From NCBI RefSeq assembly GCF_050920415.1, contig NZ_CP169309.1: DNA of 64,000 bases. One strand, given 5' to 3'. Positions within the stretch are counted from its first letter, which is position 1. Each line of letters begins with the position of its first letter. The notes beneath the pieces were generated by a model, which saw only the letters and a list, made by a program, of their open reading frames with translations, was not told the origin of the DNA and made no database searches. The DNA is from Escherichia coli (GTDB lineage: Bacteria; Pseudomonadota; Gammaproteobacteria; Enterobacterales; Enterobacteriaceae). The position numbers were made by a program, and so were the translations under genes. Positions 23,633-23,975 of this stretch are shown piece by piece.

Positions 23633-23975
23633 ACTTATACTTTTCCTTATTTTTCTGGACATGTTGCAGGTTCTTTTACTTTGAGAGATTTTAATTGATG
23701 GGTGTTATTTCTACGACAACAAAGTTTTGACAAAGAAGCAAATAAAATGCATATCTTTTGATTGTCACACATTGGAATATCGACAGAGCATTGATGATAT
23801 TACGCAAAATATATTGCAGCCAAGTGAACTGACATTACGATCGAACACAAATGCAACATGATGGATACTACCATTACATGTCGAGCTTGATTTTCCGCTT
23901 ATTTTACGATTATCTCTTGATATTAACAGCTACGGACTTTTAAACAGATAAATCTCCCCGTACATCACTACAATA

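Follow-up and report, generated by a model that had tools for sequence, protein, structure and literature searches.

The AT-rich, non-coding gap that separates tla1 from the tli array within a T6SS effector operon of Escherichia coli probably consists of the decayed remains of one, possibly two, extra copies of tli1a (DUF3304), and would now be a spacer without a dedicated function. This conclusion comes from comparing the window (the whole stretch of 64,000 nucleotides analyzed here) with related loci in E. coli and in other genera. The lost copy or copies would once have stood directly after tla1, at the head of the immunity array, and internal deletion together with mutational decay (AT drift) would have removed their coding capacity. 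The recognizable leftover would be the 3′ tail of a lost copy, which we infer to be physically the translation-initiation region of the next tli; the interior of the gap, which gives no tli match, would also be decayed tli DNA. The spacer is most likely co-transcribed within an hcp-vgrG-tla1-tli-tle1 message, given its position on the operon strand and the absence of a predicted terminator, and it would uncouple the translation of tli from tla1. The consequences are modest; the gap is another instance of a familiar kind of feature.

Position, composition and coding capacity of the gap

The gap and the genes of the operon are arranged as follows (window coordinates).

29846-29328, minus strand: hcp
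29111-27426, minus strand: N-part of vgrG
25548-27402, plus strand: IS21-type istA/istB ORFs interrupting vgrG; the element carries an IS21 annotation in L014, a locus with 99.9% identity
25445-24753, minus strand: C-part of vgrG
24740-23976, minus strand: tla1, encoding a DUF4123 chaperone/adaptor for Tle1 (Pfam DUF4123, E=2e-15); its stop codon bounds the gap
23663..23975, minus strand (operon strand): the gap, a 313-nt AT-rich non-coding spacer from tla1 to the first tli
23108-23662, minus strand: first intact tli1a-family gene, encoding a lipoprotein with a VVSGC lipobox (Pfam DUF3304, E=2e-28), alternative start at 23632
22569-23123, minus strand: second tli1a-family copy, with a 16-nt overlap with its neighbours
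22027-22584, minus strand: third tli1a-family copy, whose tail holds the tle1 start codon
about 19943-22042, minus strand: tle1, a phospholipase effector gene, identified by the Pfam T6SS_Tle1-like catalytic and C-terminal domains (PF09994, PF22137) and by annotated homologues

The initial annotation had placed the gap correctly, between the end of tla1 (24740-23976, minus strand) and position 23662, where the first long tli ORF begins. Its description of the region as strongly AT-rich and free of ORFs also holds. The GC content of the gap is 34.2%, compared to 51.5% for the whole window, a level to which only 2.8% of 313-nt windows fall; among its neighbours, tla1 has 47.5% GC and the tli copies 40-42%. 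Each of the six frames contains 3-8 stops, and the longest ORFs within the gap are 44 aa (plus strand, with a TTG start) and 41 aa (minus strand). An 11-codon mini-ORF (MYGEIYLFKSP, followed by a stop) is found at 23965-23930, starting 10 nt past the tla1 stop. The unusual trait of the gap is its length relative to the operon family rather than the absence of an ORF per se, because in 12 of 21 relatives outside E. coli the tli start lies no more than about 13 nt from the tla1 stop or overlaps it.

Assignment of the operon to a Tla1-Tli1a-Tle1 module is based on scores above the curated HMM cutoffs and on matches to both Tle1 domains. The tla1 product scored 222 bits against the NCBIfam Tla1 equivalog (cutoff 200), and the first tli product scored 207 bits against Tli1a_fam (cutoff 110), with the three copies spanning 207-212 bits. 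Disruption of vgrG by an insertion sequence, reported in the initial annotation, was confirmed by the IS21-type istA/istB genes at 25548-27402 between the two vgrG parts. This element is oriented opposite to the operon, and the annotation of the near-identical strain MFDS1022581 marks its istA as frameshifted. A transcript from the hcp promoter would cross about 2 kb of antisense IS sequence before reaching tla1, tli, and tle1.

On the 3′ side of tle1, a group II intron reverse transcriptase/maturase (17988-19504, minus strand) is present as two overlapping ORFs of 318 aa and 205 aa. Over this stretch the window differs from locus L014, where ltrA is annotated as intact, by a single 1-nt indel, and the split of the ltrA-type maturase could reflect either a real frameshift or a sequencing error.

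A tli tail at the 3′ end of the gap

The principal evidence for a lost tli copy is found at the boundary between the gap and the first intact tli.

23647..23721, minus strand: relic B, left over from the 3′ tail of a tli (DUF3304) gene, reading ...KVKEPATCPEK-stop and ending in the ATGTCCAGnnAAATAA junction

The frame of relic B closes with ...KVKEPATCPEK-stop, and the intact tli copies end in ...EMKEPATCP(S/A)K-stop. At the nucleotide level, relic B matched the three tli copies by blastn with 42/56 identities (E=6e-7), including a core of 19/19. It was also detected by nhmmer with a model of 40 codon-aligned tli genes (E=5e-4) and, at E=2e-3 and 5e-5, with models made solely from relics found in other genera. 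The final 16 nt of the relic reading frame extend into the first tli ORF, to a TAA at 23647, and the ATGTCCAGnnAAATAA junction at the end of relic B contains the first ATG of that gene.

The same arrangement is found throughout the array. The four junctions (gap to tli3, tli3 to tli2, tli2 to tli1, and tli1 to tle1) align base for base and in the same register over a common GAACC(T/A)GCAACATGTCCAnnnAAATAA. At the tli junctions the stop of each gene falls 16 nt past the ATG of the next, and the resulting 16-nt overlap, ATGTCCAnnnAAATAA, occurs at all tli-tli and tli-tle1 junctions (approximately 23647-23662, 23108-23123, 22569-22584, and 22027-22042). The alignments thus show that the gap ends, on its 3′ side, in a remnant of the tail of a tli, and that this remnant keeps the register of the array junctions. 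Only about 60-75 of the 313 nt are securely tli-derived. The suggestion in the initial annotation that the gap might be the scar of a lost gene is supported by this tail homology, and also by the intact and intermediate relic states found in relatives (see below). As a separate observation, tli copies whose products start MS(S/I/R)(E/K)IRK... have the same first codons as tle1 (MSSEISG...); together with the common overlap, this suggests that the duplicated unit captured the tle1 start region.

The position of relic B suggests that its tail provides the site at which translation of the following tli is initiated, because a Shine-Dalgarno-like AAGGA/AAAGA, 9 nt, and an ATG sit within the ATGTCCAGnnAAATAA overlap. 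Such a role may also account for the persistence of the tail. Relics in other Enterobacterales have in common a conserved core, ATGAAGGAGCCTGCAnCATG, which supplies the start of the next gene, and the best-kept core among them, ATGAAGGAG-CCTGCAnC-ATG, comprises a Shine-Dalgarno sequence, a spacer, and the start codon of the following gene. In the strain analyzed here the Shine-Dalgarno-like core of relic B is degraded (AAAGAA). The presence of the relic helps to make sense of the two candidate start codons of the first tli: in near-identical loci PGAP places the start at the second ATG (MRAIFK..., window position 23632), which gives a gap of 343 nt.

A tentative second relic and the interior of the gap

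The remainder of the gap comprises a possible second remnant and a stretch of about 190 nt between the two relics.

23914..23961, minus strand: relic A, a more decayed candidate tli-tail remnant just past tla1, recognized by similarity to the Citrobacter relic L007
23722..23913, minus strand: gap interior, about 190 nt, no significant match to tli

Comparison of relic A with the Citrobacter relic gave a Smith-Waterman score of 31, which was reached by 0 of 1000 shuffles. Relic A was also the top match of the Citrobacter spacer in the 64-kb window, on both strands, ranking above the tails of the intact tli genes. The 11-codon mini-ORF overlaps it. We grade relic A as a tentative second tli-tail remnant because the relic profile HMMs do not detect it; its identification comes from the comparison with this single Citrobacter sequence.

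The interior was compared with 40 tli genes by long-gap Smith-Waterman alignment (p=0.13) and scored with a multi-hit tli HMM (p=0.12), neither result being significant. When a tli protein HMM was run against the three translated frames of the gap, the tail alone scored; the other matches were noise, some of them mutually overlapping and one out of gene order. Two weak hints were obtained, a GSIHHVA (GINHVA-like) stretch with 14/15 nt identity to the tli of locus L028 (p~0.01) and a VDIP stretch with an nhmmer E of about 1, and both lie in the order expected from the tli gene. The interior had no match in a plasmid collection searched in distant mode or among the spacers of other genera, and comparison of the gap with the spacers of loci L011, L012, and L018 gave nothing significant outside of the tail.

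Related loci outside E. coli

We traced 21 loci outside E. coli from Tla1 homologues with 60-77% identity. They fall into four classes based on what lies between tla1 and tli.

12 loci (including Salmonella, Enterobacter, Lelliottia, Erwinia, Rahnella, Hafnia, Pantoea, and metagenomic contigs): tli start no more than about 13 nt from the tla1 stop, or overlapping it
6 loci (metagenomic L026, L027, and L012, S. electus L018, and Citrobacter L007 and L006): short relic in which a tli 5′ start is joined to a tli 3′ tail
2 loci (K. electrica L008 and Pantoea L021): gene for a 262-aa lipoprotein between tla1 and tli
1 locus (L011): 126-nt spacer

Judged by these gene positions, tight coupling of tla1 and tli is the usual state among relatives, with tli abutting or overlapping tla1 in 12 of the 21 loci. 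The relics of the second class were detected by nhmmer with E-values of 1e-24 (L026), 6e-16 (L027), 1.5e-15 (L012, a metagenomic locus whose relic is an in-frame mini-ORF of 38 codons), 2.5e-9 (L018, S. electus), and 2.3e-6 (L007, Citrobacter). The last value covers L007 alone; the spacer of L006, the other Citrobacter locus, is near-identical. These structures suggest that loss of the first tli by internal deletion left relics in several lineages, and that in the E. coli gap the relic has reached its greatest length and its most advanced decay. The E. coli relic agrees with those of L006/L007, L018, L012, L026, and L027 in its position, its strand, and its tail core ATGAAGGAGCCTGCAnCATG. The relics differ in length, those of the other Enterobacterales being 110-140 nt (339 nt in L018, which has extra AT-rich DNA after the relic), whereas the E. 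coli gap is 313 nt and has about 190 unmatched nt before the tail. A profile scan of genome contigs with a Tla1 alignment yielded 9 loci that were used for spacer lengths, and a homologue of the interior was absent from these 9 loci.

The lipoprotein gene found in two of the loci (L008:5765-6553 in K. electrica and L021:4747-5530 in Pantoea sp.) encodes a predicted product of 262 aa without a Pfam match. It was considered as the gene lost from E. coli and rejected, as tblastn of the protein against the gap returned nothing even at E=100; the gene is unrelated to the E. coli gap. At two Salmonella enterica loci (L004:5147-5356 and L005:3121-3330), only the first 70 or so codons of tle1 are detectable past the tli genes and are followed by unrelated ORFs, so that the tli genes there may be orphans beside a truncated effector.

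Distribution and variation within E. coli

Among 5,426 complete E. coli genomes, the gap is present in 69 (approximately 1.3%), once per genome, unannotated, with 94-100% identity, and always located between tla1 and the tli array. Decay of a former tli would explain this conserved, unannotated 313-nt hole in the effector operon. Each of the 69 genomes retains the gap at full length; divergence is so low that this would be expected in the absence of selection too, although it is also compatible with a function. Strain MFDS1022581 matches the window over 10 kb at 99.9% identity and shares the IS21 insertion in vgrG.

Comparison with the NC101-type allele gave identities of 98.7% for tla1 (10 differences, 6 of them at third codon positions), 93.9% for the gap, and 80.9% for the first tli, and the differences in the gap cluster in its tli-proximal half. 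The 41-codon relic frame has an earlier stop in the NC101-type allele. A 128-nt ERIC-like dispersed repeat interrupts the gap at approximately position 20 (approximately window position 23955) in about 18 E. coli genomes, for example at L024:4870-5000 and at the same site in L025. The insertion lengthens the gap to about 437 nt and breaks the 11-codon ORF that follows tla1. This repeat is found in 5,425 of the 5,426 genomes, with a median of 12 copies per genome. The greater divergence of the gap relative to tla1, the shortened relic frame of the NC101 type, and the ERIC-like insertion argue for a gap that is under no visible constraint and tolerates change. The first tli after the gap is itself a frameshifted pseudogene in NC101 (L013:6314-6867) and in FDAARGOS_144 (L024:5333-5844).

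Alternative explanations

The initial annotation had raised the possibility of an internal promoter in the gap, and we consider it rather unlikely that the gap holds a functional sigma-70 promoter that would drive the tli array, and perhaps tle1, independently of hcp and so keep immunity expressed despite the IS-disrupted vgrG. Promoter prediction did not lend weight to this proposal, since it gave two sites with 9/12 matches, a number within shuffle expectation.

23794..23835, minus strand: two overlapping weak sigma-70-like sites, 9/12 positions each

The two sites are ATGTCA-16-TATATT at 23835-23808 (9/12 match) and TTGGCT-18-TATCAT at 23823-23794 (9/12 match). On the operon strand this count of 2 compares to 1.3 +/- 1.0 after dinucleotide shuffling of these 351 nt, and the count of 5 over 1.8 kb to 4.3 +/- 2.0 in shuffles. 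AT-rich DNA readily yields weak promoters. The AT-richness of the gap (34% GC) and the location of both sites on the correct strand 125-140 nt upstream of tli speak for a promoter. Every aligned E. coli variant retains the two sites, but at 94-100% overall identity such conservation is uninformative. No conserved intergenic region was found at this site across the operon family, tli abutting or overlapping tla1 in 12 of the 21 loci outside E. coli; as most relatives are without a spacer, an intergenic promoter is not a feature of the family and any promoter here would be a lineage-specific by-product. No intrinsic terminator was predicted past tla1 or in the gap, so that transcripts entering from upstream would by default be expected to read through. 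Expression of immunity genes from internal promoters, independently of the T6SS, has precedents in V. cholerae, where such promoters drive tsiV1-3 (PMC3857813), and in EAEC, where the sci1 internal promoter P4532 gives basal tli1 expression (cited in PMC13262931). These promoters have the function first proposed for the gap, immunity expression independent of the main T6SS promoter, and a promoter in the gap would be a further case of a principle already established in both organisms. The precedents were demonstrated by reporter fusions, with those of V. cholerae lying within coding sequences, whereas the gap has consensus matches at chance level. A promoter is compatible with a relic origin, and the two explanations are not mutually exclusive. 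We regard a small protein or a structured or regulatory RNA as a highly improbable product of the gap. It does contain short ORFs (the minus-strand one of 41 aa, the plus-strand one of 44 aa, and the 11-codon ORF after tla1), but the 41-aa frame is cut short in the NC101 type, the 11-codon ORF is broken by the ERIC-like insertion in other strains, and no homologous spacer occurs outside E. coli. In addition, the gap matched no Rfam family at E<=1, and its predicted RNA fold had no extra stability relative to shuffles (z=-0.46).

A different explanation concerns only the interior (23722-23913), which might not be decayed tli sequence but foreign AT-rich DNA, for instance part of some other gene or element, that entered a short relic like those of other genera. 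The interior is without significant tli similarity, the relics of other genera are just 110-140 nt, and S. electus L018 likewise has about 230 nt of unrelated AT-rich DNA beside its relic; the ERIC-like element of some strains indicates that the site tolerates insertion. We nevertheless regard a foreign origin as unlikely. No donor was found in E. coli genomes outside of the locus, in plasmids, or in related loci, and the weak GINHVA-like and VDIP hints follow the expected tli gene order. An unsystematic inspection showed no terminal repeats or target duplications.

Comparison with known systems

The closest known system is the P. aeruginosa PAO1 locus vgrG4a-tla1-tli1b-tli1a-tle1, in which the tla1-adjacent tli1b has been proposed to be a pseudogene (PMC13133936). 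The operon of the window resembles this island in the order and families of its genes (VgrG, DUF4123 Tla1, DUF3304 lipoprotein immunity copies, and Tle1), and NCBIfam assigns the window proteins to Tla1 and Tli1a_fam. In both systems the proposed decay is located at the tla1-side head of the immunity array. They differ in the extent of decay, as the PAO1 copy is a full-length frameshifted ORF, whereas here there is a tail of about 60-75 nt and a possible second fragment within 313 nt.

The frameshifted first tli genes of NC101 and FDAARGOS_144, together with the proposed pseudogene tli1b of PAO1, make it seem that the tla1-proximal end of the tli array decays recurrently. Tle1 immunity arrays would then shed copies at this end, which bears on how immunity repertoires expand and contract. 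We also put forward, as speculation that is quite unlikely to hold, a directional turnover of Tli1a arrays. The copy abutting tle1 would be kept as the working immunity gene, translationally coupled to tle1 through the 16-nt overlap, while copies displaced toward tla1 decay in turn, with relic A, relic B, the frameshifted first copy of the NC101 type, and PAO1 tli1b as the products; the AT-rich remnant in E. coli would afterwards have been recruited as an internal promoter, sustaining the expression of immunity if the upstream hcp-vgrG part is silenced or, as in the window, IS-disrupted.

The Tle1/Tli1 pair of EAEC belongs to the same species and carries the same effector family name. Its immunity protein is a DUF2931 protein encoded downstream of tle1 (10.1101/2024.03.05.583533), whereas the immunity proteins here are of the DUF3304 family. 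The different immunity family and the position downstream of tle1 rule out the EAEC pair as a model for this locus.
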